Notes: generated by a model from the sequence alone, not told the origin. A DNA stretch of 43,003 nt from an uncultured Thermoleophilia bacterium (GCA_964440225.1 CAYTRM010000001.1:1-43003); one strand, 5' to 3'; positions 3,046-26,345 are shown, numbered from the stretch's first letter. A program made the numbers and translations.

Positions 3046-4491
3046 ATGCAGCAGGCGTCACTCACTGTCTGGGATGCCGAGGCCTGTGCACGCGTGCATC
3101 GGGCTTCGCTCGAGCTTCTCGGGCGCACGGGTGTCGAGGTCAAGCACACGCGGGCGCGCGAGCTGTGCGCCTCCGCCGGCGCAAGTGTGGAGGGGAGTCG
3201 TGTACAGCTGCCGGCCGTCCTCGTGGAGCAAGCGCTGGCGAGCGCCCCGCGAACCTGGACGCTGCCGCCGCGCGGCGGCGGTTCGGCGCCGCTGGAATTG
3301 CGCGACGGCGCCGGCTACTTCGGCAGCGGCCCCGACTGCCTCTACGTGTCCGACCCCGAGACAGGCCGGCGCCGCCGGGCGCGTCTCGCCGACGTCGAGA
3401 CGGCGGCGCGCATCGCCGAGGTGCTGCCCAACATCGACTTCGTCATGAGCATGGCGCTGCCGGAGGACGCTCCCAGCGAGACCGTCGACCTCGCCCAGTT
3501 CGCCGCCATGCTCGCCGGCACGCGCAAGCCGATCGTCGTCTCCAGCCCGTTCGGCGGCGAGACGTTGCCGGTGATGCGCGAGATGGCGGCCGCCTGCGGA
3601 GAGGCGGCGAGCTTCGCCTGCCTGGCCATGAGCTCGCCGCCACTCATGCTCGACGACGTCTGCTGTTCCAAGACGCTTGCCTGCGCCGAGTTGGACATTC
3701 CGCTCGTACTGGCGCCCTCCGTCTCGGCAGGGGTGCAAGGCCCGGCGTCGCTGGCCGCCTGCGCCGCGGTGGCCAATGCCGAACTGCTGGCGGGCCTCGT
3801 CGTGCATCAGCTGGGCAAGCCCGGAGCGCCGTTCGTCATGGGGGTCGGCATCGGGACCATGAACATGCAGTACGCCGTTGAGGCCTACAACGCGCCCGGG
3901 GTGCTCGTCGGCAACCAGGCGCAACTCGACCTGGTGCGCAGCTACGGCCTCCCCAGCTGGCACTACGCCGGCCACACCGACAGCAAGCTGCTGGATGAGC
4001 AGTGGGCGCTCGAACTCGGCGTTGCCACCGTCATGGGCGCCCTCTCTCGCGCCACTCTGCTGCACGATGTCGGTTACCTCGAGAGCGGCCTGCAGAGCGC
4101 TCTCGAGGGCCTCGTGCTCGGCGATGAGCTCGCCGGCTACGCCCGCGCTCTGTTGAGGCCCGTATCGGTTGACGATGAGGCGCTGGCGCTCGCCGAAGTA
4201 GAGGCAGTGGGCCCCGGTGGCAACCACCTGGGGACGAGGATGACGCGTCACCACTTCCGCGACTTCTGGCGGCCCAGCCTGATCGATCAGAGTCCGTATG
4301 AGCACTGGGCCGCCGCCGGCGGCCGCACGCTGCTCGAGCGGGCACGTGAGCGGGTCGGGGAACTGCTCGCCGCGGAACCCGCGTTCGCGCTGGACGCCGC
4401 GACCCGGCAGCGGCTCGAGGAGCTCGCATCGGGAGGCGCTTCGGAGCAACGGGCCGGCCAGACTGCCGCGTCCGGCCGGGGAGCTTCCTGA
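3046..4491 (+). CDS. MttB-superfamily (trimethylamine methyltransferase-like, non-pyrrolysine) protein, paralog A
   Basis: 481-aa ORF with no in-frame TAG. Family-typical N-terminus (..VHRASLELLGRTGVEV..), PNIDFVMSMALPEDAP, RKPIVVSS, LLHDVGYLESGL, and VGPGGNHLG near the C-terminus. Closest to paralog C. Confidence 0.85.
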   Translation: MQQASLTVWDAEACARVHRASLELLGRTGVEVKHTRARELCASAGASVEGSRVQLPAVLVEQALASAPRTWTLPPRGGGSAPLELRDGAGYFGSGPDCLYVSDPETGRRRRARLADVETAARIAEVLPNIDFVMSMALPEDAPSETVDLAQFAAMLAGTRKPIVVSSPFGGETLPVMREMAAACGEAASFACLAMSSPPLMLDDVCCSKTLACAELDIPLVLAPSVSAGVQGPASLAACAAVANAELLAGLVVHQLGKPGAPFVMGVGIGTMNMQYAVEAYNAPGVLVGNQAQLDLVRSYGLPSWHYAGHTDSKLLDEQWALELGVATVMGALSRATLLHDVGYLESGLQSALEGLVLGDELAGYARALLRPVSVDDEALALAEVEAVGPGGNHLGTRMTRHHFRDFWRPSLIDQSPYEHWAAAGGRTLLERARERVGELLAAEPAFALDAATRQRLEELASGGASEQRAGQTAASGRGAS

Positions 4492-4492
4492 G

Positions 4493-5884
4493 ATGCCTCA
4501 TCACGCGGTGCCTCGCTTCGTGGCTTCCACGACCTGGGATCAGCTGCCCGACGATGTCCGGGAGCGCGCCAGGCTCTGTACGCTGGACAACCTCGGGGCC
4601 ATGCTCTCCGGGCTGGCGGCGCCGTCGGCAGCCATCGCCGCAGGCACCGCAGGCCGGCTGTGGGGCGGCGACGAGGCCACGGTCGTCAAGAGCGGCGTTC
4701 GCGCAAGCGTGGCAGGCGCGGCGTTCGCGAACGCCGTGGCGGCGAACGGGACCGACATCGACGACTGCGGTGTCTACACGCTCGGGCATCCCGGGGCGCA
4801 GATCCTGCCGGCCGCGCTCGCCCTGGCCGAGCACGGCTCGCTGCCGGGGCACGCCCTGCTGCGCGCCACCGTCGTCGGCTACGAGGTGGCCTTTCTCGCC
4901 GGCCGCTGCGTCCACGACTCCGAGACCTACTACTACCGCTCCTGCGGATCGTGGGGGTCGCTCGCCTGCGCTGCCGTCGCCGCCAACCTGATGGGGCTCG
5001 ACACGGAGGCGACGGCACACGCACTGGGCATCGCCGAGTATCACTCGCCGTACGCGCCCATGTTCCGCGACGTCGACGCGCCGGCGATGGTCAAGCATGC
5101 CTGTGGCTGGGGCGCGGCGACGGGCGTGACCGCCGCCGTCCTTGCGGCACAAGGGTTCACCGGCTGCCCCAGCATCCTCGAGGACGAGAAGTACCGCGGC
5201 TGGGTCGACGACGTCGGCAGACCCTTCCTGATCACCACCGGCATCATGTGGAAGAAGCACTCCTGCTGCGCGTGGACTCATCCGGCGCTCGATGCTCTCG
5301 AGGAGATCCTGCGACGGCAGCCGGTCGCGGCGGACGACGTGCGCCGCATCCGCGCGGTGGTCTACCGCGATGCCGTGCGGCTGGGCCTCAGACAGCCGGA
5401 GACGACCGAGGAGGCGCAGTTCAACCTCGCCTGGCCGCTCGCCGTGCGCCTCGTCGACGGCGAGGTCTCCCCGGCGCAGGTGCTCGAGCCGCGGCTCGGC
5501 GATCCACGCGTGCGCGCTCTCGCGGCGCGCGTGGAGATGGAGGAGTCGGAGGAGTTCACGTGGCTGTACGACCTCAGCTGCGACGAGGACCCCGAGGGCG
5601 CCGACATGGCACGAGTGGTCCTGGAACTCAGGGACGGCACGGTGCTCGACTCGGGACCGGTGCACTCGGATGTCTATCCCGACCATCCCTGGGGTCGCGG
5701 CGAGCTTGCCCGTAAGTTCCGCTGGCTGGCGCGGCCGCTGCTTCCCGGGGCGACCGTGGAGCAACTCATCGAGATGGTCCTGCGCCTCGACGAGGTCGAG
5801 GACTCACGCGAACTCCTCCGCGTCATCAAGGCCGGCCTGAGGCCGGAACAGGCTGAGCGGCATCACACCAAGGGGGACACATGA
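4493..5884 (+). CDS. MmgE/PrpD family protein, paralog 1
   Basis: ATG 1 nt after the MttB-A stop. MPHHAVPRFVASTTWDQLPDDVRERARLCTLDNLG..., NGTDIDDCGVYTLGHPGAQ, TTEEAQFNLAWP. Collinear with the 16793..18181 protein over its full length. Confidence 0.85.
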   Translation: MPHHAVPRFVASTTWDQLPDDVRERARLCTLDNLGAMLSGLAAPSAAIAAGTAGRLWGGDEATVVKSGVRASVAGAAFANAVAANGTDIDDCGVYTLGHPGAQILPAALALAEHGSLPGHALLRATVVGYEVAFLAGRCVHDSETYYYRSCGSWGSLACAAVAANLMGLDTEATAHALGIAEYHSPYAPMFRDVDAPAMVKHACGWGAATGVTAAVLAAQGFTGCPSILEDEKYRGWVDDVGRPFLITTGIMWKKHSCCAWTHPALDALEEILRRQPVAADDVRRIRAVVYRDAVRLGLRQPETTEEAQFNLAWPLAVRLVDGEVSPAQVLEPRLGDPRVRALAARVEMEESEEFTWLYDLSCDEDPEGADMARVVLELRDGTVLDSGPVHSDVYPDHPWGRGELARKFRWLARPLLPGATVEQLIEMVLRLDEVEDSRELLRVIKAGLRPEQAERHHTKGDT

Positions 5885-6336
5885 GAGCGACGATCCACGC
5901 CGATCCGCCCCACGGCGTCGCGGCTCTTGACGCGCTCGAACGACCGGGCGTCGACCCCCGCCGCGTGGCGATCGCCCACACGGACGCCGAGATCGACGTG
6001 ACCTATCAGACGGCGTTGGCCGAGCGAGGAGCCTTCGTCGAGTGCGATTGCATCGGCTGGGAGGGGGCGGCGCGGACCGGGGCCGACCAGGGAACGTCCG
6101 CGGATCACATGCGGGTGGAGGTCGTGGCATCCCTGCTGGCCGCGGGGTTCGGCGACCAACTCCTGCTCTCGCAGGACGTCGTCACGCGCATCCAGCTCAC
6201 GGCCCACGGCGGGGGAGGCTACGCGTACTTGCTGCGCGACCTGCCTCCGCTCTTCGAGGAACACGGAATCCCGCGACACCTGCTGCACCGGCTCGTGACC
6301 GACGGGCCCGCCCGCTGGCTGGCTTGGGGCCACTGA
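5881..6336 (+). CDS. Phosphotriesterase-related (PTE/Php, amidohydrolase superfamily) protein, C-terminal half only (truncated or remnant)
   Basis: 151-aa ORF starting with an ATGA overlap on the PrpD-1 stop. ATIHADPP..GVDPRRVAIAHTD...LLLSQDV...GGGGYAYLL matches only the second half of ~300-aa PTE-family proteins. The N-terminal HxH metal site region is absent. Confidence 0.55.
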   Translation: MRATIHADPPHGVAALDALERPGVDPRRVAIAHTDAEIDVTYQTALAERGAFVECDCIGWEGAARTGADQGTSADHMRVEVVASLLAAGFGDQLLLSQDVVTRIQLTAHGGGGYAYLLRDLPPLFEEHGIPRHLLHRLVTDGPARWLAWGH

Positions 6337-6477
6337 GATGCGGTGGTCTCCGAGCTTCGCATTGCCCGCATACCTCCGCAGCCTGCCCGGCATCGATCGA
6401 CCCACCGGGGCGTGCCCTCTGGACAGATCGAGGGCCGAGCGCGACCATTCGACTCACCGACCAGCGAAGGAGCCAGC

Positions 6478-8337
6478 ATGAATCGTCCCAGAGCGGCTTG
6501 GATCAGGACATCCACCATGGCCTTTGCGATTGCGCTGTCGGCGGCGCTGCTGACGCTCGCTCTGAGCGGCGCCGCGCTCGCCGGCTCGCCGTCGCCCGCC
6601 ACCGCTTCCTCGCCGGCCGCCGCGTCGCCGTCGAGCGGCCCGCTCACCTATCGCATCGGGATCGCCCAGGACGTCGTCGACGGCATGAATCCGTTCAGCT
6701 CCCAGAGCGGGATCGCGTGGGAGAGCTTCCGCCTCGGCTACAACTTCCTCACCTGGTACGACGCCGACTACAAGCCCGTGCCCGACGCCGCCGAGAGCTG
6801 GGAGGTCAGCCCGGACGGCCTGCGCTGCACCTTCCACCTGCGCCCGGGCCTCATGTGGAGCGACGGCCGGCCGCTGACCGCGCGCGACGTCGCCTTCACC
6901 TACAACCTGATCCTGAAGACGGAGCACTGGATGTACATCCAGTACCTGGTGGGCGTGACCAGCGTGACGGCGCCCGACGACGCGACCGTCGTGATCGTCT
7001 CGAAGAAGCCAAGCCCCGGCATGCTGGCGCTGTACATCCCGATCCTGCCCGAGCACGTCTGGAGCAAGGTCGATCCCGACAAGCTCGACTACTTCAAGAA
7101 CCTGCCCATGGTGTGCTCCGGCCCGTTCCGCGTGACCGAGGTCAAGAAGAGCCACTGGGCGACACTCGAGGCCAATCCGGACTACACCGAGGCGCTCGGC
7201 GGGCCGCCCCGCGTCCAGACCGTGCGCTTCGAGATCTACCAGACCCCCGAGACCATGGTCGCCGACTACAAGGCCGGCAACCTCGACTCCATCAGTTCGT
7301 TCACGGCCCTCGACTACAAGACGCTCAAGGGCATGCCGGGTACGACCGTCGACGCAGGGCCGTCGATCGGCTTCCACCAGCTCAGCTTCAACTGCTGGGA
7401 CTCGCCCAAGTCCAACGGCAACCCGCTGACGCGTGACGTCAGCGTCCGCCAGGCGGTCGCGTGGGCGATCGACAGGGAGAAGATCAATTCGATCTCCATG
7501 GGCGGGCTCTCCACGACGGGTGCGGCGATGTTCGGGCCGGCCCAGCCCTACTGGCAGTGGACGCCGCCGGCCGGCGAGGCCTACGCGTACGACCCCGAGA
7601 AGGCCAGGCAGATCCTCGATGCCGCCGGCTACGTCGACGGCGACGGGGACGGCGTGCGCGAGGCGCCGGACGGCGAGCCGCTCATCCTCCGCCTCGTCGC
7701 CCTGAACGAGTACCCGGAGGACGTGAGCGCCGCCAAGATGATCGTGGCGTGGTGCCGAGACGTCGGCATCAAGCTGAAGCTCGACCTGATGGACGAGGGC
7801 GCCTTCACCGACCAGTTCTACGACAACGCCGACTACGACCTGTTCATCTGGAGCTGGGGCGGCGACATCGACCCTGGGTTCATGCTCTCCACCTACACCA
7901 CCACGCAGATCATGAACAACAGCATGAACCAGTACTCCAACCCGGAGTACGACGCCCTGTTCGACGAGCAGGCCCAGGCTCTCGACGCTCTCAGCCCGGA
8001 CGACAGGAGCAAGCGGCAGGCCATCGTCTTCGAGATGCAGAGGATCATTCACCGCGATTGCCCGGATATCGTGCTCTGGTACAACGTCAACCTGGCGGCC
8101 TACCGGACCGACCGATGGACGGGGTACGTGAGGGCGCCCGGGCCGGAAGGCGCTCCCTTCTGGAACATGATCCGTGCGACCTACCAGGACGTGCAGCCGA
8201 ACGTGGCGACCGAGGACGCCGCGGTCGCCGGCTCGTCGGCGACGGTGTGGATCGTCGCCGGCGTCGCCGTCGTGATCGCCGTCACCGCCGTCGTCCTGCT
8301 GCTCCGGCGGCGTCCGCATGCGGTGGAGGACGAATGA
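6478..8337 (+). CDS. ABC-transporter substrate-binding protein, family 5 (peptide/opine/nickel type), signal peptide plus C-terminal TM anchor (SBP1)
   Basis: GAAGGAG RBS before ATG 6478. N-terminal signal peptide (..LALSGAALAGS..) without a lipobox Cys. Family-5 core (WSDGRPLTARDVAFTYN, ILPEHVW, GSGPF). C-terminus SSATVWIVAGVAVVIAVTAVVLLLRRRPHAVEDE. Confidence 0.85.
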   Translation: MNRPRAAWIRTSTMAFAIALSAALLTLALSGAALAGSPSPATASSPAAASPSSGPLTYRIGIAQDVVDGMNPFSSQSGIAWESFRLGYNFLTWYDADYKPVPDAAESWEVSPDGLRCTFHLRPGLMWSDGRPLTARDVAFTYNLILKTEHWMYIQYLVGVTSVTAPDDATVVIVSKKPSPGMLALYIPILPEHVWSKVDPDKLDYFKNLPMVCSGPFRVTEVKKSHWATLEANPDYTEALGGPPRVQTVRFEIYQTPETMVADYKAGNLDSISSFTALDYKTLKGMPGTTVDAGPSIGFHQLSFNCWDSPKSNGNPLTRDVSVRQAVAWAIDREKINSISMGGLSTTGAAMFGPAQPYWQWTPPAGEAYAYDPEKARQILDAAGYVDGDGDGVREAPDGEPLILRLVALNEYPEDVSAAKMIVAWCRDVGIKLKLDLMDEGAFTDQFYDNADYDLFIWSWGGDIDPGFMLSTYTTTQIMNNSMNQYSNPEYDALFDEQAQALDALSPDDRSKRQAIVFEMQRIIHRDCPDIVLWYNVNLAAYRTDRWTGYVRAPGPEGAPFWNMIRATYQDVQPNVATEDAAVAGSSATVWIVAGVAVVIAVTAVVLLLRRRPHAVEDE

Positions 8338-9671
8338 GCCGGGCGGGCAGTGCTCAGACGTCGCCCGGCCCCGCGATCGGCGACGGCTTCGAACTGCTTG
8401 CGGCCGGAGACCTGATCTCTTCGCGCCCGCTCGCGTCCAGGCTCGCGCGCGACCCCGCCTTCTCCGACGTCGCGCGTCTGCTCGGCGAGGCGTCGCTGGC
8501 GGTCGGCAACATGGAGACGTCGATCCTCGACCTGCGCGCGTTCGGCGGTCACCCGCGCACCGTCGACGACTGGTGCATGGCCGCCCTCCCCGCCGTCGCC
8601 GGGGACCTCGCCGGTCTGGGCTTCCGGCTCGTCTCGCGCGCCAACAACCACTGCTGCGACTGGGGCATCGAGGGGATGCGCGAGACCGGCCGGCATCTCG
8701 ACGCGGCCGGGATCGTCCATGCGGGGACCGGAGAGACGCTGGCACACGCCCGCGCGCCGCGCTACGTGGAGACGGAGCACGGGCGTGTCGGGCTCGTCTC
8801 CGCCTATGCGGCGCAGAAGTGGGACAACGACGCCGCGCTCGACCAGTTCGGCGAGGCGCCGGCGCGTCCGGGCGTGAGCGCCCTTCGCATCGCCCTCACG
8901 GCGACGGCCCCGAAGCCCGTGGTCGACGGCCTGCGAGACGTCTACCGCAAGGCCTATCCGGGCTCGGCCGACCCCGGCGACGGCGCGCTCACCATCTTCG
9001 ACACGACGTTCATCGATGGCGAGGCGACCGCCGTGCGCTGGGCGCCGGACCCCGCCGACGTCGCCGAGGTGCTGCGCAGCGTACGCCTCGGCGCCCAGCA
9101 CTCCGACCTGCTCGTCGTCTCCCTGCACGTGCACGAGGAGGAAGGGAGCGCCGCGCAGCCGCCGGCCTTCCTCGTCGACCTGGCGCACGCCGCCGTCGAG
9201 GCCGGCGCCGGCGCGGTCTTCTGCCACGGCTCGCACGTGCTTGGACCCGTCGAGATCCGCCGCGGTCGGCCGATCTGCTACGGCCTCGGCAACTTCTTCT
9301 GGTCGGACATCCAGGAGTGCCTCCACGGGGCGCTCCATGCGGCCGCCCGGGCGCGGTTCGGCGACGCGCTCGGCGACCCGGCGATGGTGACCGACGCCGA
9401 CGTCAACCGGGCGTTCAACGCGAGCGAGTTCGCGGACTCCCGCTACTTCGAGTCGGTGCTCGTGGAACTCACGTACGCAGGCGGCGACCCCGCCGTGCGT
9501 CTGCTGCCCGTCGACCTGCGCTACGGCACACCGCTCACCGAGAGCGGCACGCCGCGGTTCGCCGCCGAGAGCACCGCGCGGGCGATCGTGGAGCGGCTCG
9601 ACCGCATGTCGCGGCCTTTCGGCACGGCGGTCGAGCTGCGGGACGGAGTCGGTCGTGTCTTGTCGGCCTGA
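8334..9671 (+). CDS. CapA family protein (PGA_cap, metallophosphatase-like), paralog 1
   Basis: ATGA overlap with the SBP1 stop. GNMETSI and SRANNHCCDWGIEGMRETGRHLDAAGIVHAGTGE fit the CapA pattern. Highly similar to 15429..16796. Confidence 0.85.
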   Translation: MSRAGSAQTSPGPAIGDGFELLAAGDLISSRPLASRLARDPAFSDVARLLGEASLAVGNMETSILDLRAFGGHPRTVDDWCMAALPAVAGDLAGLGFRLVSRANNHCCDWGIEGMRETGRHLDAAGIVHAGTGETLAHARAPRYVETEHGRVGLVSAYAAQKWDNDAALDQFGEAPARPGVSALRIALTATAPKPVVDGLRDVYRKAYPGSADPGDGALTIFDTTFIDGEATAVRWAPDPADVAEVLRSVRLGAQHSDLLVVSLHVHEEEGSAAQPPAFLVDLAHAAVEAGAGAVFCHGSHVLGPVEIRRGRPICYGLGNFFWSDIQECLHGALHAAARARFGDALGDPAMVTDADVNRAFNASEFADSRYFESVLVELTYAGGDPAVRLLPVDLRYGTPLTESGTPRFAAESTARAIVERLDRMSRPFGTAVELRDGVGRVLSA

Positions 9672-9746
9672 GGCTGCGGGGCGCCACCCCGAGATGAGTT
9701 CCCCGTCCGAGGGAGTGGCCCGCCGTATCGCACTCGAGGAGGGTGC

Positions 9747-13106: not shown

Positions 13107-13522
13107 CGGGTCCTTTCCCCCCATTTCACGGGTCGTGCCCGCAGGATATCCCATGGCCATGTCCGGTAGACTCCTTTCGGGCGTCAGGCGGTCACGAGGT
13201 CAGCGTCCCATGAGGCGCGGTGCACCTTCCGCAAGCTCGCCTTTCGCGTTGTTGGAGACCAGGCAGGAGGCATGTGATGGTTGATTTCCGGGCAGCGCTT
13301 GAGGGCATCGAACGCTTCCTCGACGAGCGCCTGCCGCGCTCCGACGCGCCCGGCGCGGTCGTGGCACTGACCGATCGCGAGCAGTTCCTGGGCGCCACCG
13401 CGGTGGGGGTCGCCGACATGGCCGCCGAGCGGCCGATGCAGGTCGACGACCGCTTCCAGATCGGTTCGATCAGCAAGTCGTTCGCGGCCATCATCGCGAT
13501 GCAGGAAGTAGAGGCCGGTCGT
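12221..13522. repeat. Master copy of the block duplicated at 57..1476
   Basis: See the 57..1476 feature. Here both genes continue to full length. Confidence 0.8.
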
Positions 13523-16796: not shown

Positions 16797-18181
16797 GCCG
16801 CCCAGTCTCGGAGATCGTCGCCGGCTTCATCACCGGTTGCCGCTGGACAGACCTTCCGGATGAGGTGAAGGCCAAGGCGCGCTTCTGCCTGCTGGACAAC
16901 CTGGCGGCGACACTCACGGGTGCACAGACGAAGATCGCGCAGATCGCCGACGCCTACGCCACGGAGACGTGGCCCGGCCGGGGCGCGACGGTCTTGGCAA
17001 CGGGTCGCGACACGTCGCCAACCGGGGCGGCCTTCGTCAATGCAGTGGCCGCCAACGGCACCGACATCGACGACTGCGGCATCTACACGTACGGTCACCC
17101 GGGTGCCCAGCTGTTTCCGGCGGCGCTGGCGCTGGCCGAAGCCCGGCGCGCATCGGGCGCGGCGTTCATGTCGGCGCAGGTCGTCGGCTACGAGGTCGCG
17201 TTCAGGACCGGCCGCTGCATGCACGATCGCGAGATCAGCCCGGAGGAAGGCGGCTTTCGCTCCTGCGGCTCGTGGGGCTCGGTGGCCTGCGCCGGCGTCG
17301 CTGCTCACCTCATGGATCTGCCTCGCGAGCAGACGCTGCAGGCGCTCGGGATCGCCGAGTACCACTCGCCCGACGTTCCCATGGAGCGCGACATCGAGGC
17401 TCCCACCATGGTCAAGCACGGTATCGGGATCGGCGCCATGACGGGGATCATGTCCGCCCGCTTGGCCGAGCTCGGCTTCACGGGCGTGCCGAGCATCCTT
17501 ACCTTCGACGAGTACGCGGGCTGGGTCGGGGACATCGGGACCGACTACCTGCTGCCGACCGGGATCATGTGGAAGGAATACTCCTGCTGCGGCTATTCGC
17601 ATCCGGCCATCAACGCGCTGAAGACCATCATGGACGCCACGCCGATCCCCATTGATCGGGTCGAGCGGATCGTCCTTGAGGTTTACGGGTACGCGGCCGA
17701 TCTCGGCGCGCGGCTGCCCGGGACGACCGAGGAGGCGCAGTTCAACCTCGCCTGGCCGGTCGCCTGCTTCCTGGCCTACGGCGAGGTGGCGCCCGAGCAC
17801 GTGCTCGAGCCCCACCTCGGCAATGAGGCGGTACGCGCGCTGGCGAGCAAGGTCGAGATCGTCGTCTCCGACGAGTTCACAAGGCTCTACGCGCTCGATG
17901 AGGCCGGCGACCCGCAGGGCATGGAGGTCGCCGACGTGACCGTCGAGCTCGGAGACGGCCGTGTCTTGAGGTCGGGAGTGCAGCCCTCGCCGGTCTACGG
18001 CGACTGGCCGCCAGGGAAGATGGAGGCCAAGTTCCGCTGGCTGGCGCGCGGTCTGATCGGCGATGAGGCGACCGTGCGGCTGATCGAGATGTGCTGGCAC
18101 TGCGACGAGCTCGACGACGTGCGCGAACTGACCGCACTGATCAGCGCGGCCCGGACTAGCCGCCAGGCCGTCCAGACGTAG
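16793..18181 (+). CDS. MmgE/PrpD family protein, paralog 2
   Basis: ATGA overlap with the CapA-2 stop. NGTDIDDCGIYTYGHPGAQ and TTEEAQFNLAWP. Collinear with 4493..5884. Confidence 0.85.
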   Translation: MSRPVSEIVAGFITGCRWTDLPDEVKAKARFCLLDNLAATLTGAQTKIAQIADAYATETWPGRGATVLATGRDTSPTGAAFVNAVAANGTDIDDCGIYTYGHPGAQLFPAALALAEARRASGAAFMSAQVVGYEVAFRTGRCMHDREISPEEGGFRSCGSWGSVACAGVAAHLMDLPREQTLQALGIAEYHSPDVPMERDIEAPTMVKHGIGIGAMTGIMSARLAELGFTGVPSILTFDEYAGWVGDIGTDYLLPTGIMWKEYSCCGYSHPAINALKTIMDATPIPIDRVERIVLEVYGYAADLGARLPGTTEEAQFNLAWPVACFLAYGEVAPEHVLEPHLGNEAVRALASKVEIVVSDEFTRLYALDEAGDPQGMEVADVTVELGDGRVLRSGVQPSPVYGDWPPGKMEAKFRWLARGLIGDEATVRLIEMCWHCDELDDVRELTALISAARTSRQAVQT

Positions 18182-18632
18182 GCTGCGGCAGCCCCGCCGG
18201 TTCAGCCGGTACGGCCCGGTCGCGTGCGCGGCTCCACGGCCGGCAGCATCCTGTCGCGTCCGAGCGCCCGCGTGAGGTCGGTGGAGCGTCGCGGTCGAGC
18301 CGCTCCCGCGCCTCACGCGTGGTGGTGTCGCCGATACCGGCGTTGCGGACCGTGGCCGCCATGCCGTGCGCCTTGAGGGCTCCGGGCAGCAGTTCCGGGT
18401 ACATCTCGATTGACTGCCCGGTCCAATCATCGACCGCGGTCGTGGAGTCGCCGAGAGCGACGATCACCAGCGGTGCTGGCTCGCACTTCGCCGTCGATTC
18501 CCTGGGGGGACCGCTCACCCCACGCCCCCCTGCTGGCAGTCTCCCAAGCCGGCCCGGTTCGCTCTCGAGGGGGAGACTGCACAATCGATGGGTCTTCCGC
18601 GAGCGAGGATCTGCCTTCCGCTGGGGGGGCAC
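18156..18632 (-). pseudogene. SGNH/GDSL hydrolase 5' fragment (blocks I-II only)
   Basis: LVIVALGDSTT (block I GDS) and VRNAGIGDTTT (block II) are encoded by ~18288-18473. No block III (GxND) or V (DxxH) appears in any frame. The ORF tail runs into the 3' end of PrpD-2. Confidence 0.45.
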
Positions 18633-18878: not shown

Positions 18879-20297
18879 GTGGCCACGGCCAGGATCACCT
18901 ATCTCTCTGAGAGCGAGCGCGCCGATCTGATCGAGCAGACGTTCATCGTGCTCGAGGAGGTCGGCGTGACCTTCCACACGCCCGAGGCGCTCGACCTGCT
19001 GGAGGAGGCCGGCGCGGTCGTCGACCGCGAGACCACGCTTGCGCGCCTGCCGCGCGACCTGGTCGAGCGCTGCCTGGCGCTGGCGCCCAGCCAGGTGCTC
19101 CTCGCCGCTCGCGACCCGCGCAACGACGTGCTGATCGGCGGCGGCGCGCCGCTGTCAGTGAGCAGTAGCGGTACCGCGACCTACATGCTCGACGACCTCA
19201 CCGGCGAGCGCCGCGACGGCACCGCCGCCGACCTGCGCACGATCATGCGCCTCTTCGACGCGCTCCCCGAGTACGACTACGTGTGGCCGACCATCTCGGC
19301 GCGCGACCTCGACCCGCTGACCGCCAACCTCGAGATCGAGGCAATCTCGCTGCGCTCGTGCGCCAAGCACGTGCAGGACGAGGTGCGCTCCATAGAGTAC
19401 GTCGAACCGTTGCTGGACATCTTCGAGGTCGTCGCTGGTGCGCCCATGAGCAAGCGGCCCATCTTCTCGACCATCAACTGCACCATCGCGCCACTGTCGC
19501 ACGACGCGGAGATGACGCCGGCCAGCATCGCCCTGGCGCGCGCCGGCGTGCCGATCGTCATCATGCCGATGCCGCTGATGGGCACCACGGCGCCGCTGAG
19601 CGCCGCCGGCGTGACGGTCATCACCCTGGCCGAGATCGCCTCGGCCGTCGTGCTCTTCCAGCTCGCCGCGCCGGGCTGCCCGCTGATCGCGGGGCCTGAA
19701 CCGGCGCTGGCAGACCTGCGCAGCGGCCTCTACCTGAGCGCCCCGCCGGAGATCGCGTTCGCCGCCCTGGCCTGCATCGACGTGCTCAAGTCGTGGGGTC
19801 TGCCGGTGCAGGGAGGGAGCTTCGGCGGCGACGCCAAGGCGACCGACTTCCAGGACGGGCTCGAAGGCGCCTTCCACGGCCTGCTGGATTCGCTCAGCGG
19901 CGCCGACACGCTCATCGGCCCAGGCGAGTTCGACGGCGCTCAGTCAGTGAGCCTGGGCGCCATCGTGCTGCATGCCGACGCCACCGGCATGCTCAAGAAG
20001 GCGCTCGCCGACACGCCGTTCGACAGCGCCTCGATGCTGATCGACGACATCCGCGCCGTGGGCCCCGGCGGCCACTTCATGGGCCGCCGGTCGACCCGGC
20101 AGCGCGCCCGTGACGCCTGGCAGCCGGCCGTGATGCGGCGCGGCACCTTCGAGTCACACCGCGGCAGCACGCTGATCGAAGACGCCGTGGCGCGGGCCCA
20201 CCACCTGCTGGCCACCCATGAGGTCCTGCCGATCGCCGACGACATCGAGCGCCACATGGACCAAGTCATCGCCGGCTTCGCGACCGCCAACGCCTAG
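18879..20297 (+). CDS. MttB-superfamily (non-pyrrolysine) protein, paralog B
   Basis: GTG start with GAAGGGGAG RBS. 472 aa with no in-frame TAG. IVIMPMPLMGTTAP and VGPGGHFMG. Closest to paralog D. Confidence 0.85.
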   Translation: MATARITYLSESERADLIEQTFIVLEEVGVTFHTPEALDLLEEAGAVVDRETTLARLPRDLVERCLALAPSQVLLAARDPRNDVLIGGGAPLSVSSSGTATYMLDDLTGERRDGTAADLRTIMRLFDALPEYDYVWPTISARDLDPLTANLEIEAISLRSCAKHVQDEVRSIEYVEPLLDIFEVVAGAPMSKRPIFSTINCTIAPLSHDAEMTPASIALARAGVPIVIMPMPLMGTTAPLSAAGVTVITLAEIASAVVLFQLAAPGCPLIAGPEPALADLRSGLYLSAPPEIAFAALACIDVLKSWGLPVQGGSFGGDAKATDFQDGLEGAFHGLLDSLSGADTLIGPGEFDGAQSVSLGAIVLHADATGMLKKALADTPFDSASMLIDDIRAVGPGGHFMGRRSTRQRARDAWQPAVMRRGTFESHRGSTLIEDAVARAHHLLATHEVLPIADDIERHMDQVIAGFATANA

Positions 20298-20329
20298 ACG
20301 ATCGACAGCGACTTACCAAGGAGGTCAGG

Positions 20330-21604
20330 ATGCGAGCCGAGATGACGACCGCCCCCCAAGCGCGACCGAGCTGGGCGCACGCGGGCCTCTCGGTCATCGG
20401 CGGCCATTTGGCGATCGCCGGCCGTGACGCCGAGGCCGTCGCTCTTGAGCACGGCACGCCCCTGTACGCTTTCGATCTTGTCCGCATCACCGAGCAGGTC
20501 GCGGCTCTGCAACGGGCGCTCGCGGGGGTGGGTCTGCGGTACACGACCAGGTTCTCGATGAAGGCGCAGCGGGAGCCCGAGGTGCTCGCCCACCTGCGCA
20601 GCCTCGGTCCGCCTTTGACCCCACAGTGCATCGGCCCCGACATCTGCTCTCCCGTGGAACTGGCCAGCGCGCTGGCCAGCGGGTGGCAGGGCGACGAGAT
20701 CAGCTACACGGGGACCAACGTCTCCGACCGCGACTTCGCGGCCATCTGCGCCCAGCCGATCCGCCTCAACGTCGACGGGCTGTCGCAACTGCGGCGCTTC
20801 GCCCGTCACGCGCCCGGTGGAAGCGTCGGCCTGCGTGTCAACGTGCGCTGTGGCGCGGGGCACGGCGGTCGGTACGCGGGCAGCGACTACGGTAGCGACA
20901 AGCCGTCGAAGTTCGGCTTCTACCAGGAGCAGCTTCCCGAAGCCCTCGTGATCGCGCGTGAGGCCGGGCTGACCATCACCGGCCTGCATTTCCACGCGAG
21001 CACCGCTCTGGCCATGGACGACCTTCCCGCCTTCGCCGAGACGGTGCGGCGTGCCGCAGCGACGGCCGCCTTCCTCCTCGAGGCGGGCTGTCCGCTCGAA
21101 GAGGTCAACGCCGGCGGCGGCCTCGACATCGGCGCGTCCGCCGACCGGCCGGCCCTCGACCTGGACGCGTACGCGACGGTGCTGGCCGAGTATCTCGGGC
21201 CGCTGGGTCCGGTCGTCTCGGTCGAGCCGGGGGAGTTCCTCTTCGGCGACAGCGCCGTCTTGCTGGCCGAAGTGGTGACGGTCGAGGACCGGCTCGGAGT
21301 GCCGTTCGTGGGGCTCGACGCGGGCTGGAACGCCGCCCCGGATCGCTTCATCTACCAGGTGCCGCTCGAGGTCGTGCTCTGTCGCGACGTGCTGCCCGGG
21401 AGCGTGCGAGCGACGACGATCACCGGTCACATCAACGAGGGCGACGACGTCTTCGCCGAGGACTACCCCTTCCCCGAGCCGCGCGAGGGCGACATCGTCG
21501 CCATCCTGTACGCGGGCGGCTACTGGCAGAACATGGTCGCTCCCCACTGCGGACGCCTCAAGCCGCAGGCGGTGTACTTCGCCGACCGTCTCGGGGCCGC
21601 GTAG
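20330..21604 (+). CDS. Fold-type III PLP-dependent decarboxylase (Orn/DAP/Arg decarboxylase family, diaminopimelate decarboxylase-like)
   Basis: AAGGAGG RBS. GTPLYAFD, PLP-lysine context RFSMKAQ, glycine loop NAGGGLDIG, EPGEFL. Confidence 0.8.
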   Translation: MRAEMTTAPQARPSWAHAGLSVIGGHLAIAGRDAEAVALEHGTPLYAFDLVRITEQVAALQRALAGVGLRYTTRFSMKAQREPEVLAHLRSLGPPLTPQCIGPDICSPVELASALASGWQGDEISYTGTNVSDRDFAAICAQPIRLNVDGLSQLRRFARHAPGGSVGLRVNVRCGAGHGGRYAGSDYGSDKPSKFGFYQEQLPEALVIAREAGLTITGLHFHASTALAMDDLPAFAETVRRAAATAAFLLEAGCPLEEVNAGGGLDIGASADRPALDLDAYATVLAEYLGPLGPVVSVEPGEFLFGDSAVLLAEVVTVEDRLGVPFVGLDAGWNAAPDRFIYQVPLEVVLCRDVLPGSVRATTITGHINEGDDVFAEDYPFPEPREGDIVAILYAGGYWQNMVAPHCGRLKPQAVYFADRLGAA

Positions 21605-21632
21605 CAGTGAACGACAATCTGGAGGTTCCTCT

Positions 21633-23057
21633 ATGGAGAGAGTGATCCTGAAGGCCTGGGACGAGGCCGATTGCGCGCGCGGGCATGCCGCGGCCCTGAA
21701 GATCCTCGACCGCGTCGGCGTGGAGGTGCGCGACGAGACGGGGCTGGCGCTGTTCGAGAAGGCGGGCGCGCGCGTCGAACACACTCGTGTGCGCATACCC
21801 GCGGAGCTCGTCGAGCAGGCCCTGTCGACCGCGCCGCGCGCCTTCCCGCTGAAGGGGAGAGACGACGACGGGGCCTTTGACCTCGACGTCCGCGATGGTC
21901 CGGTCTACTTCGGAGCCGGTTCGGACTGCCTCTACATCCTCGACCCTCAGAGCGGCGAACGCCGGCGGGCGGCGGTCGCCGATATCGAGGTCGGCGCGGG
22001 CCTGATCGAGCGGTTGCCCAGCATCGACTTCGTGATGTCGATGTGGTTGCCCGAGGACGCTCCGCAAGAGGTCGTCGAGCTGGTGCAGCTCCAGGCCATG
22101 CTGACCTACACGCGCAAGCCGATCGTGGTGTCCAGCGCTCGCGGCGGCAACGCGATGCACGAGCAGGTCGAGATGGCCGCTGCCTGCGGCGCTCCTGCCG
22201 ACACCCTCGCCTGCCTCAATATGTCGTCGCCGTCACTCGTCTTCGACGCGACTTGTGTCGAGAAGACGTTGTCGTGTGCCCAGCTTGGCGTTCCCATGGT
22301 CCTTGAGACGGGCGTCTCGCTCGGCTCCACCGGGCCGGTCTCGATGCAGACGTCCGTGGCTGCGGCGCACGCCGAGGTCATGGCTGCCCTCGTGCTGCAC
22401 CAGCACATCGAGCCGGGAGCGCCCTTCATCTACGGGACGGGCATCAGCCAACTCAACATGGGCACCTTCGTCGATCTCTACGGGGGGCCCGAAAGCGGGC
22501 TTGCGGGCCACTTGCAGCTCAACCTCGCCCAATCGTTGTCGCTGCCCACGTTCGACTACGCAGGGTACTCCGATGCGAAGAGCCATGACGAGCAGGCCGT
22601 CGCCGAGATCATGTCGACCTGTATCGGCGGGGCCAACTGTGGGGGGACCCTGCTGCACGACGTCGGCTACCTCGAGTCGGGGCTGCTGAGTTCCTTCGAG
22701 GCGTTGGTCATGGGCGACGAGTTCGCCGGCTTCGCGCGCGCCGGCATGGGGATAGTGCCCTCCGACGACGCGGTGTTCCTGATCGACGAGGTCGCCGACG
22801 TGGGACCGGGAGGCAGCTATCTCGGCAAGTCCACGACGCGCAAGGCGATCCGCGAGTGGTGGCGCCCGCGGCTGCTCGACGGGTCGAACGCCCGCCAGTG
22901 GCAGGAGAGCGGCTCGCTTTCATTGGGCGATCGTCTTCGTGCTCTGACCGCGGAGCTGCTGGCGCCGGCTCCCGAGCCGGTGATTGACTCGCAGGCGGTG
23001 TCCGACCTTGCCTCTCTCGTCGAGCAGGCACGCGGGCGGGTGGCGGACGGGGAGTGA
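21633..23057 (+). CDS. MttB-superfamily (non-pyrrolysine) protein, paralog C
   Basis: GGAGG RBS. 474 aa with no in-frame TAG. PSIDFVMSMWLPEDAP, RKPIVVSS, LLHDVGYLESGL, VGPGGSYLG. Confidence 0.85.
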   Translation: MERVILKAWDEADCARGHAAALKILDRVGVEVRDETGLALFEKAGARVEHTRVRIPAELVEQALSTAPRAFPLKGRDDDGAFDLDVRDGPVYFGAGSDCLYILDPQSGERRRAAVADIEVGAGLIERLPSIDFVMSMWLPEDAPQEVVELVQLQAMLTYTRKPIVVSSARGGNAMHEQVEMAAACGAPADTLACLNMSSPSLVFDATCVEKTLSCAQLGVPMVLETGVSLGSTGPVSMQTSVAAAHAEVMAALVLHQHIEPGAPFIYGTGISQLNMGTFVDLYGGPESGLAGHLQLNLAQSLSLPTFDYAGYSDAKSHDEQAVAEIMSTCIGGANCGGTLLHDVGYLESGLLSSFEALVMGDEFAGFARAGMGIVPSDDAVFLIDEVADVGPGGSYLGKSTTRKAIREWWRPRLLDGSNARQWQESGSLSLGDRLRALTAELLAPAPEPVIDSQAVSDLASLVEQARGRVADGE

Positions 23058-23094
23058 CAGGGGTCATAGGGAGTCAGCGGAGAAAGGATCAAGC

Positions 23095-24906
23095 ATGGAC
23101 GTCACGAGAAAGCTGTCGACCTGCCTGTTGCTCGCGGCTGCGCTGCTCGCGGCGGGTTCGATCTGGGGACCAGCGGTGTCGTTCGCTCAGAGCTCGCCGC
23201 CGGCGAGCACCGGCAAGGTCGTGCTGAAGCTCGGCCTTCCGGCCGACGCCGACTCGCTCAATCCGTGGATCGGCTACTTCGGCCTCTGCTACGAGGTCTG
23301 GAGCCTCAACTACGACTTCCTGGTCAACCATGATCCTGAGGGCAACCCGGCCCCCGGCCTGGCCGAAAGCTGGTCGACGTCACCCGATGGCCTCACCTGG
23401 ACGTTCAAGATCCGCCAGGGAGCCAAGTGGCACGACGGTCGGCCGGTGACGGCCAGCGACGTGGCGTTCACCTACAACCTCATCATCCAGAAGGAGATCG
23501 ACTCGTACACGCCCTACGTCAAGAACATCGAAGAGGCCGTGGCGGTCGACGACTCCACGGTCGAGATCCACTGCTCCGCGCCCAAGGCGAACATGCTCGA
23601 CCTCTGGATCTACATCCTTCCCGAGCACATCTGGAGCAGGATCGACGATCCCGTCAACCACAAGATGACCTATCCGATCATCGGGTCGGGCCCCTTCCAG
23701 TGCGTCGAGTGGAAGAAGGGGAGCCACATCAAGATGGTCAAGGTGCCCGGCTACTGGGGCGGCGAGCCGACCCTCGACGAAGTCTCCTACGAGATCTACA
23801 CCAACACCGACACGATGGTGATGGACCTCAAGTCCGGGATCATCGACGGCGCCGAGGACGTCCCGCCGGCGCAGTACGCGTCGCTCTCCGAGACCGAGGG
23901 CTTCACCGCCACCGGCCTGAACATGTACACGTTCGAGTACCTGAGCCTCAACTGCTACGGGGAGCCCACCTCGCTGGGCCACCCCGCCCTCAGAGACGTG
24001 AGGTTCCGCCAGGCGCTTCACTGGGCCGTCGACAAGCAGAAGCTCGTCGACCTCGGCCTGGCCGGCCACGGACGTCCCGGGACGACGATCTGCCCGCCCG
24101 ATGAGTGGCCGCCCGGGCGTGACCCGCACTACGAGCCCACCGCCGAAGAGGCCTACGGCTTCGACATCGCCAAGGCCAACCAGCTGCTCGATGCGGCCGG
24201 CTACGCCGACTCCGATGGCAACGGCATCCGCGAGTACAAGGGCAACGACATCGAGCTGCGCCTCTGGAGTCGCAGCGAGTCGCAGTCCAGCCAGATGGAG
24301 GGCAAGCTGATCGCCGGCTGGTTCAAGGAGTGCGGCCTGAGGATCGACTACTCGGTCGTCGACGAAGGCGTCTTCAACGATGCGGTCTGGAACTACAAGG
24401 GCGACGACTACGCGCCCGACTACGACATGCTGCTGTGGGATTGGCCGGGCTACCTCGATGCCGGTGACACGCTCTCCTGCCTCACGACAAGCCAGATCGA
24501 GTGGTGGAACGACTGCTGCTGGTCGAACGCCGAGTTCGACGAGCTCAGCGACCAGCAGTACGGCGAGATGGACGTGCCGACCCGTATGGACATGCTCAAG
24601 CGCATGCAGCAGATCATCTACGTCGAGTCGCCCTACATCGTGCTCACCTATCCCGACGCGTTGGAGGTCAACAACACCGCCAAGTGGGAGGGCTGGGTCC
24701 TGTACCAGGGCAAGGGCCTGCCCTGGTTCAACTCCCTCAACATGGACACCTACCTGAAGCTCAAGCCCGTAGCCGCCGTCGAGGGCGAATCGGGCGGGAC
24801 CAGCACCACCACCTGGATCATCATCGGCGTGGTCGCCGCCCTCCTGGCGATCGTCGTGATCGTCCTTCTCGCCCGCCGCGGCAGGGGCATGGCGGTCGAG
24901 GAGTGA
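23095..24906 (+). CDS. ABC-transporter substrate-binding protein, family 5, signal peptide plus C-terminal TM anchor (SBP2)
   Basis: GGAGAAAGGA RBS before ATG 23095. Signal peptide ..GPAVSFAQS. WHDGRPVTASDVAFTYN, ILPEHIW, GSGPF. C-terminus GGTSTTTWIIIGVVAALLAIVVIVLLARRGRGMAVEE. Confidence 0.85.
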   Translation: MDVTRKLSTCLLLAAALLAAGSIWGPAVSFAQSSPPASTGKVVLKLGLPADADSLNPWIGYFGLCYEVWSLNYDFLVNHDPEGNPAPGLAESWSTSPDGLTWTFKIRQGAKWHDGRPVTASDVAFTYNLIIQKEIDSYTPYVKNIEEAVAVDDSTVEIHCSAPKANMLDLWIYILPEHIWSRIDDPVNHKMTYPIIGSGPFQCVEWKKGSHIKMVKVPGYWGGEPTLDEVSYEIYTNTDTMVMDLKSGIIDGAEDVPPAQYASLSETEGFTATGLNMYTFEYLSLNCYGEPTSLGHPALRDVRFRQALHWAVDKQKLVDLGLAGHGRPGTTICPPDEWPPGRDPHYEPTAEEAYGFDIAKANQLLDAAGYADSDGNGIREYKGNDIELRLWSRSESQSSQMEGKLIAGWFKECGLRIDYSVVDEGVFNDAVWNYKGDDYAPDYDMLLWDWPGYLDAGDTLSCLTTSQIEWWNDCCWSNAEFDELSDQQYGEMDVPTRMDMLKRMQQIIYVESPYIVLTYPDALEVNNTAKWEGWVLYQGKGLPWFNSLNMDTYLKLKPVAAVEGESGGTSTTTWIIIGVVAALLAIVVIVLLARRGRGMAVEE

Positions 24907-26345
24907 AGACGCGGATCGAGGTCCTGGCACCCGACGAGCGGGCGCAGGTGCACGAGCGTTCGTTGCACGTGCTCGAGAAGGTGGGTATGCGCGTCGACAC
25001 GGCCGTCGGCCGCCGCATCCTGGAGAACGTGGGAGCCCTCGTCGATGAGTCGACACGCATCGTGCGCTTCCCCCACGCGCTGGTCGAAGAGCTTCTGGCG
25101 CTGGCGCCGCGACGATTCTCGCTGGGCGGGCGGCGGCCCGGCTGGGAGTTCCCGCTCAACGCCGGTGAGTCGACCATGTGCCTCGACGGCGGTCCCACGA
25201 TGGTCCTCGACCGGCACTCGGGAGAACGCCGGCCCAGCACGCGCGCCGATTGGCTCGAGGCGATCCGGCTCAGCGACGCCGTCGACGAGATCGGCGTGCT
25301 CTGGTCGCCGGTCTCGGGCTGGCTCCCCGACAAGAGCAGGACCTCCTTCGTCGACTACGCGGCCGGCATGCAGCGGGCCTTCTCCAAACATGTGCAGGAC
25401 TCGTTCGATGATCCCGTCGAAGCGCGCTGGCAACTCGAGGTCCTCGAGATCGTCTTCGGCGGACGCGACGAAGTCCGCCGTCTGCACCCGTACTCGTTCC
25501 TGACAACGCCGGTCTCGCCGCTGGTCATCGAGAAGGCGGGCACTGAAGCCTGGCTGGCGCTGCGCGGCTACGACATCCCGCTGGCGATCATGCCCATGCC
25601 GCTGATGGGGGCGACCGCCCCGGGCAGCATGCTGGGCACCACGCTGCTGGCCAATTGCGAAGTCCTGGGCGTCATCTGTCTGGCGCAGGCCGCCGAGCCG
25701 GGCACACCGATCATCCATGCGCCGACTCTGGCGACCATTGACCCGCGCAGCGGACGCCTGGCCGACAACGCACCCCAGGCCGCTCTCAACATCGCCGGCG
25801 TGGAGATGGCACGCTACTACGGCCTGCCGGCCATGGGGTCGGGAGGCGGCACCGACGCCTTCGCGCCCGGTATCCAGTCCGGGTACGAGGGGACGTTCGG
25901 TACCGTGCTCGGGGCGCTGGCCTGGCCCGACGTCATGGTCGGCCCCGGCGGGCTGGCAGGGTCGACCATCTTCAGTTTCGAGCAGACCCTGGTCGACGTC
26001 GAGATCTGGCGCCTGTGCCGCAAGGCCCACGCCGGCATCGAGGTCGCCGATGACCGCTGGCTCACCGAGGCGCTGGAGCGCGTCGGCCCCGGCGGCCAGT
26101 TTCTCTCCGAGAAGTCGACGCGCGTCAACGCGCGCTCCGGCGAATGGCACTTCTCGCAGCTGGGCTGGCACGATTCCTGCGACGCCTGGACGGCGGCCGG
26201 CTGCCCCGATGCCCTCGATGGGGCGCGAGAGAAGGTCGACGCGATCCTGGCGGCCCATCAGCCGCTGCCGCTCGGCGAGGACGTCGAAGGCGCGCTGGCC
26301 GAGCTCCGCGACCGAGCCCTGCGTCACGACGGGGGTTCGTCTTGA
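24903..26345 (+). CDS. MttB-superfamily (non-pyrrolysine) protein, paralog D
   Basis: GTG start overlapping the SBP2 stop (GTGA). VKTRIEVLAPDERAQVHERSLHVLEKVGMRV aligns with the N-termini of the other paralogs. LAIMPMPLMGATAP and VGPGGQFLS. Confidence 0.8.
   Translation: MKTRIEVLAPDERAQVHERSLHVLEKVGMRVDTAVGRRILENVGALVDESTRIVRFPHALVEELLALAPRRFSLGGRRPGWEFPLNAGESTMCLDGGPTMVLDRHSGERRPSTRADWLEAIRLSDAVDEIGVLWSPVSGWLPDKSRTSFVDYAAGMQRAFSKHVQDSFDDPVEARWQLEVLEIVFGGRDEVRRLHPYSFLTTPVSPLVIEKAGTEAWLALRGYDIPLAIMPMPLMGATAPGSMLGTTLLANCEVLGVICLAQAAEPGTPIIHAPTLATIDPRSGRLADNAPQAALNIAGVEMARYYGLPAMGSGGGTDAFAPGIQSGYEGTFGTVLGALAWPDVMVGPGGLAGSTIFSFEQTLVDVEIWRLCRKAHAGIEVADDRWLTEALERVGPGGQFLSEKSTRVNARSGEWHFSQLGWHDSCDAWTAAGCPDALDGAREKVDAILAAHQPLPLGEDVEGALAELRDRALRHDGGSS

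Follow-up and report, generated by a model that had tools for sequence, protein, structure and literature searches.

A Thermoleophilia gene island with four non-pyrrolysine MttB-superfamily paralogs, probably served by corrinoid partner genes encoded elsewhere

The stretch GCA_964440225.1 CAYTRM010000001.1:1-43003 from an uncultured Thermoleophilia bacterium, 43,003 nt (43 kb) long and called the window in what follows, carries four genes for MttB-superfamily proteins, here named A, B, C and D. They are accompanied by two MmgE/PrpD-family genes (PrpD1 and PrpD2), two CapA genes, three genes for anchored SBP_bac_5 solute-binding proteins, a gene for a fold-III pyridoxal phosphate (PLP) decarboxylase, and TetR and RpiR regulator genes, a neighbour list that a first-pass annotation of the sequence had given and that was found again here (Table 1). 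That annotation had also remarked on the lack of genes for a corrinoid protein, a methylcorrinoid transferase and an activase, and had offered two readings: an uncharacterised catabolic set for a methylated nitrogen compound, or use of the MttB fold independently of corrinoids. We describe the four genes, their relatives in other Thermoleophilia genomes and metagenomes, and the evidence that bears on how they may work.

The window has a G+C content of ~68%, and real genes were therefore chosen by third-position GC (GC3) and then scanned against Pfam; the scans covered all plausible open reading frames (ORFs). The comparison set consists of 79 fetched Thermoleophilia genome loci and of C-type metagenome loci from a scan with C as the query (17 loci at 66-99% identity plus a more distant one at 44%). 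Loci are cited by L numbers; L001-L004 are contigs of the same organism as the window, and 97 loci come from other organisms. The exact A protein was found only on short metagenome contigs whose ends lie ~220 nt left of the window (L001, L002), and the exact third SBP_bac_5 protein was not on record in the database search. The organism is present in the samples ENA ERZ27248920, ENA ERZ27248962 and JGI 3300028191. By A, the closest genomes are uncultured Thermoleophilia metagenome-assembled genomes (MAGs; Actinomycetota) at up to 78% identity, recovered in surveys of boreal lakes and from soil and sediment in Denmark. A literature search combining Thermoleophilia and MttB returned incidental mentions only.

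All four proteins belong to the MttB superfamily. They match PF06253 (MTTB / COG5598) at 209-246 bits against a cut-off of 25, with profile positions ~30-494 of 500 covered, and their ORFs are open from start to stop, so that none holds an in-frame TAG; D starts at the ATG at 24903, within a longer ORF (24501-26345). A matches the MtgB structures 9yce/2qne (E 2e-45) and the MttB structure 7xcm (9e-38) over residues 13-458, a sequence match to solved TIM-barrel structures, and B-D could be aligned to both MtgB and MttB sequences. Two subtypes are visible, A with C (49% identity) and B with D (26-29% identity to A for either). The motifs on which the first-pass annotation had based its four non-pyrrolysine ORFs and their subtypes are all in place: VGPGG-x-(H/F/Y)-(L/M) in A-D, IDFVMSM.LPEDAP, RKPIVVSS and LLHDVGYLESGL in the A/C subtype, and IMPMPLMG(T/A)TAP in the B/D subtype.

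The genes are intact and maintained. Orthologs of A are found in Thermoleophilia MAGs at 63-79% identity, and orthologs of D at 86-91% in L093, L094, L096 and L105. Pairwise dN/dS (the ratio of nonsynonymous to synonymous substitution rates) against orthologs is 0.19-0.46 for A-D, the decarboxylase and RpiR (~0.2 for A, 0.21-0.28 for B), and these genes are thus under purifying selection, including in lineages without a corrinoid gene embedded in the operon. One could still imagine a decaying module, in which partner genes were lost in rearrangements and the MttB genes are becoming pseudogenes. Four gene remnants and a restriction-modification (R-M) island inside the pathway's oxidoreductase gene (see below) would fit such a history, as would the position of the TetR gene, which normally abuts corrinoid genes and here abuts a truncated beta-lactamase-family gene. 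Decay is nevertheless very unlikely: all four MttB ORFs are full length, GC3 is 0.83-0.92 in three of them, their dN/dS lies at 0.2-0.46, and near-identical operon segments occur in L087 and L088, samples other than ours, with C orthologs at 98-99% identity.

B, C and D lie in an operon with conserved membership. The set of B, decarboxylase, C, PrpD2-like protein, SBP_bac_5 protein, D and RpiR recurs among the C-type metagenome loci with some shuffling. The decarboxylase gene, separated from B by only 33 nt in the window, adjoins C orthologs in at least 12 of 19 loci, and PrpD2-like ORFs adjoin C in six of the 19 (L090, L091, L092, L098, L099, L102). SBP_bac_5 genes occur in seven C-type loci, and the place between C and D is taken by one in L088, L090, L094, L096 and L105, as in the window. 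RpiR orthologs follow D or C in seven loci (L088, L089, L090, L093, L094, L096, L105). Strains appear to have exchanged parts of the operon: between L087 336-5122 and window 18879-23057, C is 99% but the adjacent B only 87% identical, which indicates within-operon recombination.

Relatives of this operon do contain corrinoid partner genes. L105, a 634-kb contig, holds the syntenic ortholog of the window operon in the order B (87% identical), corrinoid protein (8039-8689), decarboxylase, C (79%), SBP_bac_5, D (86%), SBP_bac_5, RpiR (84%) and a FAD-dependent oxidoreductase (DAO). Upstream of it (1-4481) lie genes for a CdhD/FeS protein, a RACo activase, a CooC-like ATPase and a pterin-binding (Pterin_bind) methyltransferase. 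These upstream genes resemble part of a Wood-Ljungdahl acs cluster, which suggests that some of these Thermoleophilia channel MttB-derived methyl groups into the acetyl-CoA pathway. In L097 and L106, C orthologs (73% identical) are followed directly at the 3' side by a B12-binding_2 plus B12-binding protein, and in L097 the two ORFs overlap by a few nt. GCV_T, creatinase and AsnC genes surround the pair in both loci, and on the L097 contig there are also genes for an amine oxidase, a creatinase-like protein, an ABC transporter and formate-tetrahydrofolate ligase, with GCV_T present twice. With a corrinoid gene inside the operon in L105 and a corrinoid-less form in the window, L087, L089 and L096, the corrinoid gene is variably embedded in this operon.

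For A the corresponding evidence comes from its sister clade. The divergent TetR regulator beside A has an unusual architecture, an IS1595-type Zn-ribbon-like N-terminus followed by TetR_N and a BetI-type C-domain, and this Zn-ribbon TetR is conserved as the divergent neighbour of an MTTB gene in ~12 loci (e.g. L040 8766-9929, L067 8692-10098). The window protein is 66-68% identical to the TetR proteins that stand between corrinoid genes and MTTB in L040 and L067. A search with the B12 domain of MetH (the E. coli sequence, verified against PDB 1BMT) gave matches in ~21 of the 79 Thermoleophilia loci, and a Pfam-confirmed module, whole or partial, was found in ~12 loci, which hold the sister clade of A (~56% identical). 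The fullest order (e.g. L067, L081, L049, L051) is corrinoid protein, URO-D, URO-D, aminotransferase, corrinoid protein, divergent Zn-ribbon TetR and MTTB, often followed by SBP_bac_5 and an arginase-family gene; URO-D-family genes were found in L040, L049, L051, L056, L067 and L081. In at least six MAGs an A ortholog standing alone coexists with an MttB cluster linked to corrinoid genes, e.g. L011 and L082 on one 2.0-Mb contig.

Corrinoid genes and MttB genes are abundant in the lineage as a whole. Arrays of ~4-8 MttB-matching ORFs per 20 kb with embedded corrinoid genes were seen in ~10 loci. RACo/RamA-type activase homologs occur in 20 loci, namely L105, where the domains were identified, and 19 further MttB-bearing loci (E ~1e-90). 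SBP_bac_5 genes adjoin MTTB in ~25 of the 79 Thermoleophilia genome loci. A conserved trio of MTTB, SBP_bac_5 and arginase-family genes was also observed 3' of the corrinoid/URO-D/aminotransferase cluster in L037, L041-L043, L061, L067 and L081 (~11400-14500 in each), and the substrate of that module may be a methylated guanidino or amino compound.

We therefore consider it quite probable that A-D are the substrate-specific first methyltransferases (MT1) of a conventional corrinoid-dependent network, with the shared corrinoid protein, second methyltransferase (MT2) and activase encoded outside the window. Each MttB protein would demethylate a nitrogen compound, probably a quaternary one, and load the methyl group onto a small corrinoid protein with its cobalt in the Co(I) state; an MT2 of the pterin-binding or URO-D type would pass this group to tetrahydrofolate, and an activase of the RACo/RamA type would repair the oxidised cofactor. 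These three components would be shared among many MttB paralogs and encoded elsewhere. The window would then hold two substrate modules, one with TetR divergent from A-PrpD1 and a downstream SBP_bac_5 gene, the other with B, decarboxylase, C, SBP_bac_5, D and RpiR and with PrpD2 upstream. The membrane-anchored SBP_bac_5 proteins may capture the substrate, and the diaminopimelate-decarboxylase-like and PrpD-family enzymes may process its carbon skeleton. From the relatives we infer that the partner genes lie elsewhere in this genome; which way the methyl group travels, what accepts it and what kind of substrate donates it are likewise predictions.

Such a layout has close precedents. Eubacterium limosum has 42 MttB homologs, and its quaternary-amine methyltransferases (MtpB included), mtqC and mtqA/ramQ are in separate clusters (PMC8604678); the MtyB and MtcB genes adjoin a transporter and a regulator, and a single MtqC serves MtpB, MtcB and MtyB alike (PMC8604678, PMC12155760). 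The window is like the E. limosum system in its many non-pyrrolysine paralogs, in an MT1 gene whose neighbours are a regulator and a transporter or binding protein, not a corrinoid protein, and, if our reading is right, in a single corrinoid protein, MT2 and activase shared from separate clusters. It differs in host, a Firmicute acetogen there and an uncultured actinomycetote here, and in neighbours, which are MFS transporters and RocR-type regulators there and anchored SBP_bac_5 proteins, a diaminopimelate-decarboxylase-like enzyme and PrpD-family proteins here. The likeness is one of gene context; to MtgB of Desulfitobacterium hafniense, the one solved quaternary-amine member, A-D are 26-29% identical. 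The D. hafniense MtgB-MtgC-MtgA system for glycine betaine shares superfamily, fold and the VGPGG motif with A-D, whereas the betaine-binding residues are not kept in A-D (H348 in A and C excepted) and the partner genes are not adjacent in the window.

Ruegeria pomeroyi demethylates glycine betaine aerobically by MtgB, MtgC and MtgD with a core shared with split methionine synthase. Its MtgB (SPO2108, SPO2134), MtgC (SPO2160) and MtgD (SPO1863) are encoded by separate ORFs whose locus tags are not adjacent, and up to seven pfam06253 ORFs per genome share the core in systems of this type (PMC12478193). MtgB paralogs encoded apart from the corrinoid and pterin-binding subunits are a point of likeness to the window; having both URO-D-type and pterin-binding MT2 candidates sets the window's relatives apart. 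The premise of the first-pass annotation that characterised non-pyrrolysine members have their cognate corrinoid protein encoded next door is thus mistaken for MtcB and MtyB, which neighbour a transporter and a regulator (PMC8604678), and for R. pomeroyi MtgB (PMC12478193). The more distant Methanosarcina barkeri MttB-MttC, a pyrrolysine trimethylamine methyltransferase, belongs to the same Pfam family (match of A at E 9e-38); the window genes differ from it in having no amber codon, in His, Tyr or Gly at the Pyl334 position, and in scores below cut-off for TIGR02369.

Several observations weigh against a conventional network. Within the 43 kb, Pfam scans of the window ORFs found no B12-binding, URO-D, pterin-binding or RACo/RamA domains; a phmmer search of all six-frame ORFs (70 aa or longer) with the B12 domain of MetH as query had no match even at E<=10; and tblastn with the relatives' corrinoid, RACo, CooC-like, pterin-binding and URO-D proteins reached a best E of ~0.5, with no remnant. 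The absence reported by the first-pass annotation thus held under all three methods. The operons of L087, L089 and L096 are likewise without an embedded corrinoid gene, and the contexts of L089 and L093 (18-21 kb) had no corrinoid gene within reach. Genuine orthologs of A stand alone or have an SBP_bac_5 gene behind them, and the evidence for A is at the level of paralogs (56-57% identity). Finally, the island is rearranged and its DAO gene truncated, so that part of the pathway may be impaired in this organism. With the window and L087, L089 and L096 all lacking an embedded corrinoid gene, we infer supply in trans rather than observe it.

The same absence of partner genes or their remnants, the operons of L087, L089 and L096 and the non-conservation of the MtgB substrate residues could be taken for an MttB fold that works without a corrinoid protein, by direct methyl transfer to another acceptor or, alongside PrpD and the decarboxylase, in a reaction other than methyl transfer. 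This we regard as highly unlikely. Orthologs 73-87% identical to the window proteins stand in operons that include a corrinoid protein and have activase and pterin-binding methyltransferase genes upstream; corrinoid and RACo genes are plentiful in the lineage; and unlinked partners are the published norm for organisms with many paralogs. Nothing in our results points to corrinoid independence as such, with partners flanking the orthologs in relatives. We know of no MttB member that works without a corrinoid, and the publications consulted treat corrinoid-dependent members only.

That corrinoid and MT2 genes might be co-conserved with these paralogs was the outcome that the first-pass annotation had named as contrary to its finding, and in relatives this largely proved to be so, for orthologs of B, C and D and for the sister clade of A. 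Multi-paralog organisms keep one shared corrinoid/MT2/activase core elsewhere, and an MttB gene without a corrinoid neighbour is therefore no evidence for B12-independent chemistry, a correction to a tempting step from the missing neighbour to B12 independence. The suggestion of an uncharacterised catabolic set for a methylated nitrogen compound is supported, with the order B, decarboxylase, C, (PrpD), SBP_bac_5, D, RpiR conserved in other metagenomes. A-D are, in sum, uncharacterised members of a known system.

What these enzymes act on can be narrowed from what they are not. In the NCBIfam naming, matches were sub-threshold only (trimeth_pyl, lysA, PrpD, MslH); for the trimethylamine methyltransferase equivalog TIGR02369, A-D score 252-307 bits, short of the cut-off of 525. 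The first-pass annotation had proposed inspecting the residue that replaces pyrrolysine and the substrate pocket. By alignment with the PDB-derived MtgB and MttB sequences, the Pyl334 position is His in A, Tyr in C and Gly in B and D. MtgB binds betaine through Y97, R312, H348 and F356 (PMC13080624). H348 is kept in A and C only, and the Arg and both aromatics are replaced in all four: Y97 by Pro/Ser/Gly, in a part where the alignment is uncertain, R312 by Trp/Phe/Gln/Met, and F356 by Gly/Gly/Ala/Ser. None of A-D has the MtgB glycine-betaine residue set in this alignment. Assignment of a substrate from the MtgB pocket residues was rejected, since they serve only to exclude a pocket of the glycine-betaine type. 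From the sub-cut-off TIGR02369 scores and the loss of MtgB residues, the substrates would differ from trimethylamine and probably from glycine betaine too.

The neighbours give a positive hint. The BetI-type C-domain of the TetR next to A would fit a betaine- or choline-like effector, which we count in favour of a conventional network. The decarboxylase scores 176.8 bits for NCBIfam lysA, below the cut-off of 297.9, and matches diaminopimelate decarboxylases in the PDB at ~1e-20, and the nearest solved relatives of PrpD2 are IRG1/cis-aconitate decarboxylase and IDS epimerase, both hints at the family level. Taken with the peptide/opine-type binding proteins, these neighbour genes suggest, with low confidence, an N-methylated amino-acid-derived substrate. 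A bolder extension, tentative and in our estimate rather unlikely, is that in the operon B, diaminopimelate-decarboxylase-like enzyme, C, (PrpD), SBP_bac_5, D, RpiR, DAO the three divergent paralogs (26-49% identical) share out the methyl groups, or the consecutive methylation states, of a single substrate that derives from an amino acid and lies outside the characterised MttB range, so that soil and freshwater Thermoleophilia would carry out stepwise N-demethylation without pyrrolysine and feed a common corrinoid core.

The MttB family is thus markedly expanded in uncultured Thermoleophilia of soils, sediments and lakes, and the arrays come with corrinoid, URO-D or pterin-binding, and RACo genes of their own. 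This fits reports from a permafrost mire, where Actinobacteriota were found to express methylated-amine demethylation genes and the genus Bog-752 was named among the most active bacterial methylotrophs (PMC10805028); the related locus L079 comes from a MAG named bog_752. The comparison also defines a conserved operon in which three MttB clades are combined with a decarboxylase, an enzyme of the PrpD family and a membrane-anchored binding protein. Naming its substrate would extend the short list of MttB-family substrates and the knowledge of cobalamin demand in these habitats.

Table 1. Genes, gene remnants and islands of the window
Feature	Coordinates	Strand	Evidence and remarks
Beta-lactamase/PASTA fragment	967-1731		Truncated gene
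TetR-family regulator	1709-2866	-	Pfam TetR_N 1.1e-14, TetR_C_6 6.3e-12, weak Zn_ribbon_IS1595; divergent from A
MttB-superfamily paralog A	3046-4491	+	481 aa; PF06253 1.7e-71; His310 at pyrrolysine position
MmgE/PrpD-family protein 1	4493-5884	+	MmgE_PrpD_N 3.2e-46, MmgE_PrpD_C 1.7e-31; gene call in L001
Phosphotriesterase (PTE) C-terminal fragment	5881-6336	+	Gene remnant; Pfam profile positions 164-297 of 298 only
SBP_bac_5 solute-binding protein 1	6475-8337	+	Pfam 1.8e-84; signal peptide, C-terminal transmembrane anchor, RRRP tail
CapA/PGA_cap-family protein 1, MslH-epimerase-like	8334-9671	+	Pfam PGA_cap 1.1e-48; NCBIfam MslH 7.4e-53, below cut-off
CapA/PGA_cap-family protein 2	15429-16796	+	Pfam 4.8e-51; PDB 8gq9 E 6e-39
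MmgE/PrpD-family protein 2	16793-18181	+	Pfam; homologs adjoin C orthologs in other metagenome contigs
GDSL lipase remnant	18285-18599	-	~107 N-terminal codons; tblastn with L089 GDSL, 66% identity, E 5e-35
MttB-superfamily paralog B	18879-20297	+	472 aa; PF06253 4.1e-69; Gly316 at pyrrolysine position
Fold-III PLP decarboxylase, diaminopimelate-decarboxylase-like	20330-21604	+	Pfam Orn_Arg_deC_N 1.3e-26
MttB-superfamily paralog C	21633-23057	+	474 aa; PF06253 6.6e-73; Tyr312 at pyrrolysine position
SBP_bac_5 solute-binding protein 2	23095-24906	+	Pfam 8.1e-84; signal peptide, C-terminal transmembrane anchor
MttB-superfamily paralog D	24903-26345	+	480 aa; PF06253 1e-61; Gly316 at pyrrolysine position
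RpiR/SIS regulator	26386-27282	+	Pfam HTH_6 and SIS; conserved last gene of B-C-D operon
FAD-dependent oxidoreductase (DAO) N-terminal remnant	27393-27550	+	tblastn with L105 DAO, E 6e-10
Type I restriction-modification island	27700-39207		HsdM 28406-29974, HsdS 32250-33476, HsdR 36019-39207
SBP_bac_5 solute-binding protein 3	40250-42160		Signal peptide, C-terminal transmembrane helix, Arg-rich tail

The remaining neighbours can be considered apart from the MttB genes. Two S15 peptidases, three genes or fragments of the beta-lactamase family and the type I R-M island come in addition to the neighbours that the first-pass annotation had named. One might read all neighbours as one novel pathway that uses four MttB proteins, two PrpD, two CapA, S15, beta-lactamase-family proteins, SBP_bac_5 and the decarboxylase. 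The window genes are tightly packed and co-directional, PrpD1 starting 2 nt past A, and PrpD2-like genes by C together with the conserved decarboxylase, SBP_bac_5 and RpiR partners would agree with it. It is quite unlikely all the same. Homologs of the window CapA, S15 and beta-lactamase-family genes stood beside MttB in 0 of the 97 loci outside the same organism, the linkage being confined to L001-L004. Of the neighbours on which the first-pass annotation had remarked, SBP_bac_5, the decarboxylase, RpiR and TetR are conserved and PrpD partly so, and CapA is not.

The doubling of neighbours has a local explanation. Window 57-943 matches 12221-13107 at 87.7% nucleotide identity, and a second segment, 1220-1475, matches 13266-13521 at 80.9%; this segmental duplication comprises a divergent pair of S15 and beta-lactamase-family genes (regions 1-1731 and 11076-14956). 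The two CapA proteins share 78% identity and the two PrpD proteins 54.5%. All that remains of the beta-lactamase-family gene in the left copy of the duplicated pair is a fragment joined to a PASTA domain; the repeat may be the reason why contigs L001 and L002 both end just left of the window. Four truncated genes (beta-lactamase/PASTA, PTE, GDSL and DAO) mark rearrangement joints, and the doubled neighbours largely reflect this history of segmental duplication and rearrangement. In L089 an intact GDSL gene lies upstream of B, and the window remnant is the scar of a rearrangement. Both CapA proteins match MslH best, the epimerase of the C-terminal Trp of a lasso peptide (NCBIfam 165-180 bits, short of the cut-off; PDB 8gq9), a likeness that suggests a separate peptide-utilisation set, more simply than a role beside MttB: CapA, S15 and the beta-lactamase-fold hydrolases may serve in the use of peptides containing D-amino acids, unrelated to MttB.

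No ABC permease or ATPase gene was found in the 43 kb, so that the anchored SBP_bac_5 proteins are seemingly orphans; all three begin with a signal peptide at the N-terminus and end in a transmembrane helix followed by an RRR(P) tail. Neither a cobalamin riboswitch nor any other Rfam family was found in the window, nor were tRNA integration sites. The R-M island appears to have been inserted into the DAO gene that in relatives comes after RpiR: DAO is intact there in L089 and L105, DAO-homologous ORFs lie directly after RpiR in L088, L090 and L094, and the ORF is full-length in L088, a 98% relative. Accessory genes are interleaved with the R-M genes (RhuM-like, DUF1016/YhcG nuclease, Fic/RhuM, DUF4357 and AbiEi/AbiEii, with DUF6504 at the left edge), and the G+C content of the island is 0.63-0.66, compared with ~0.69.

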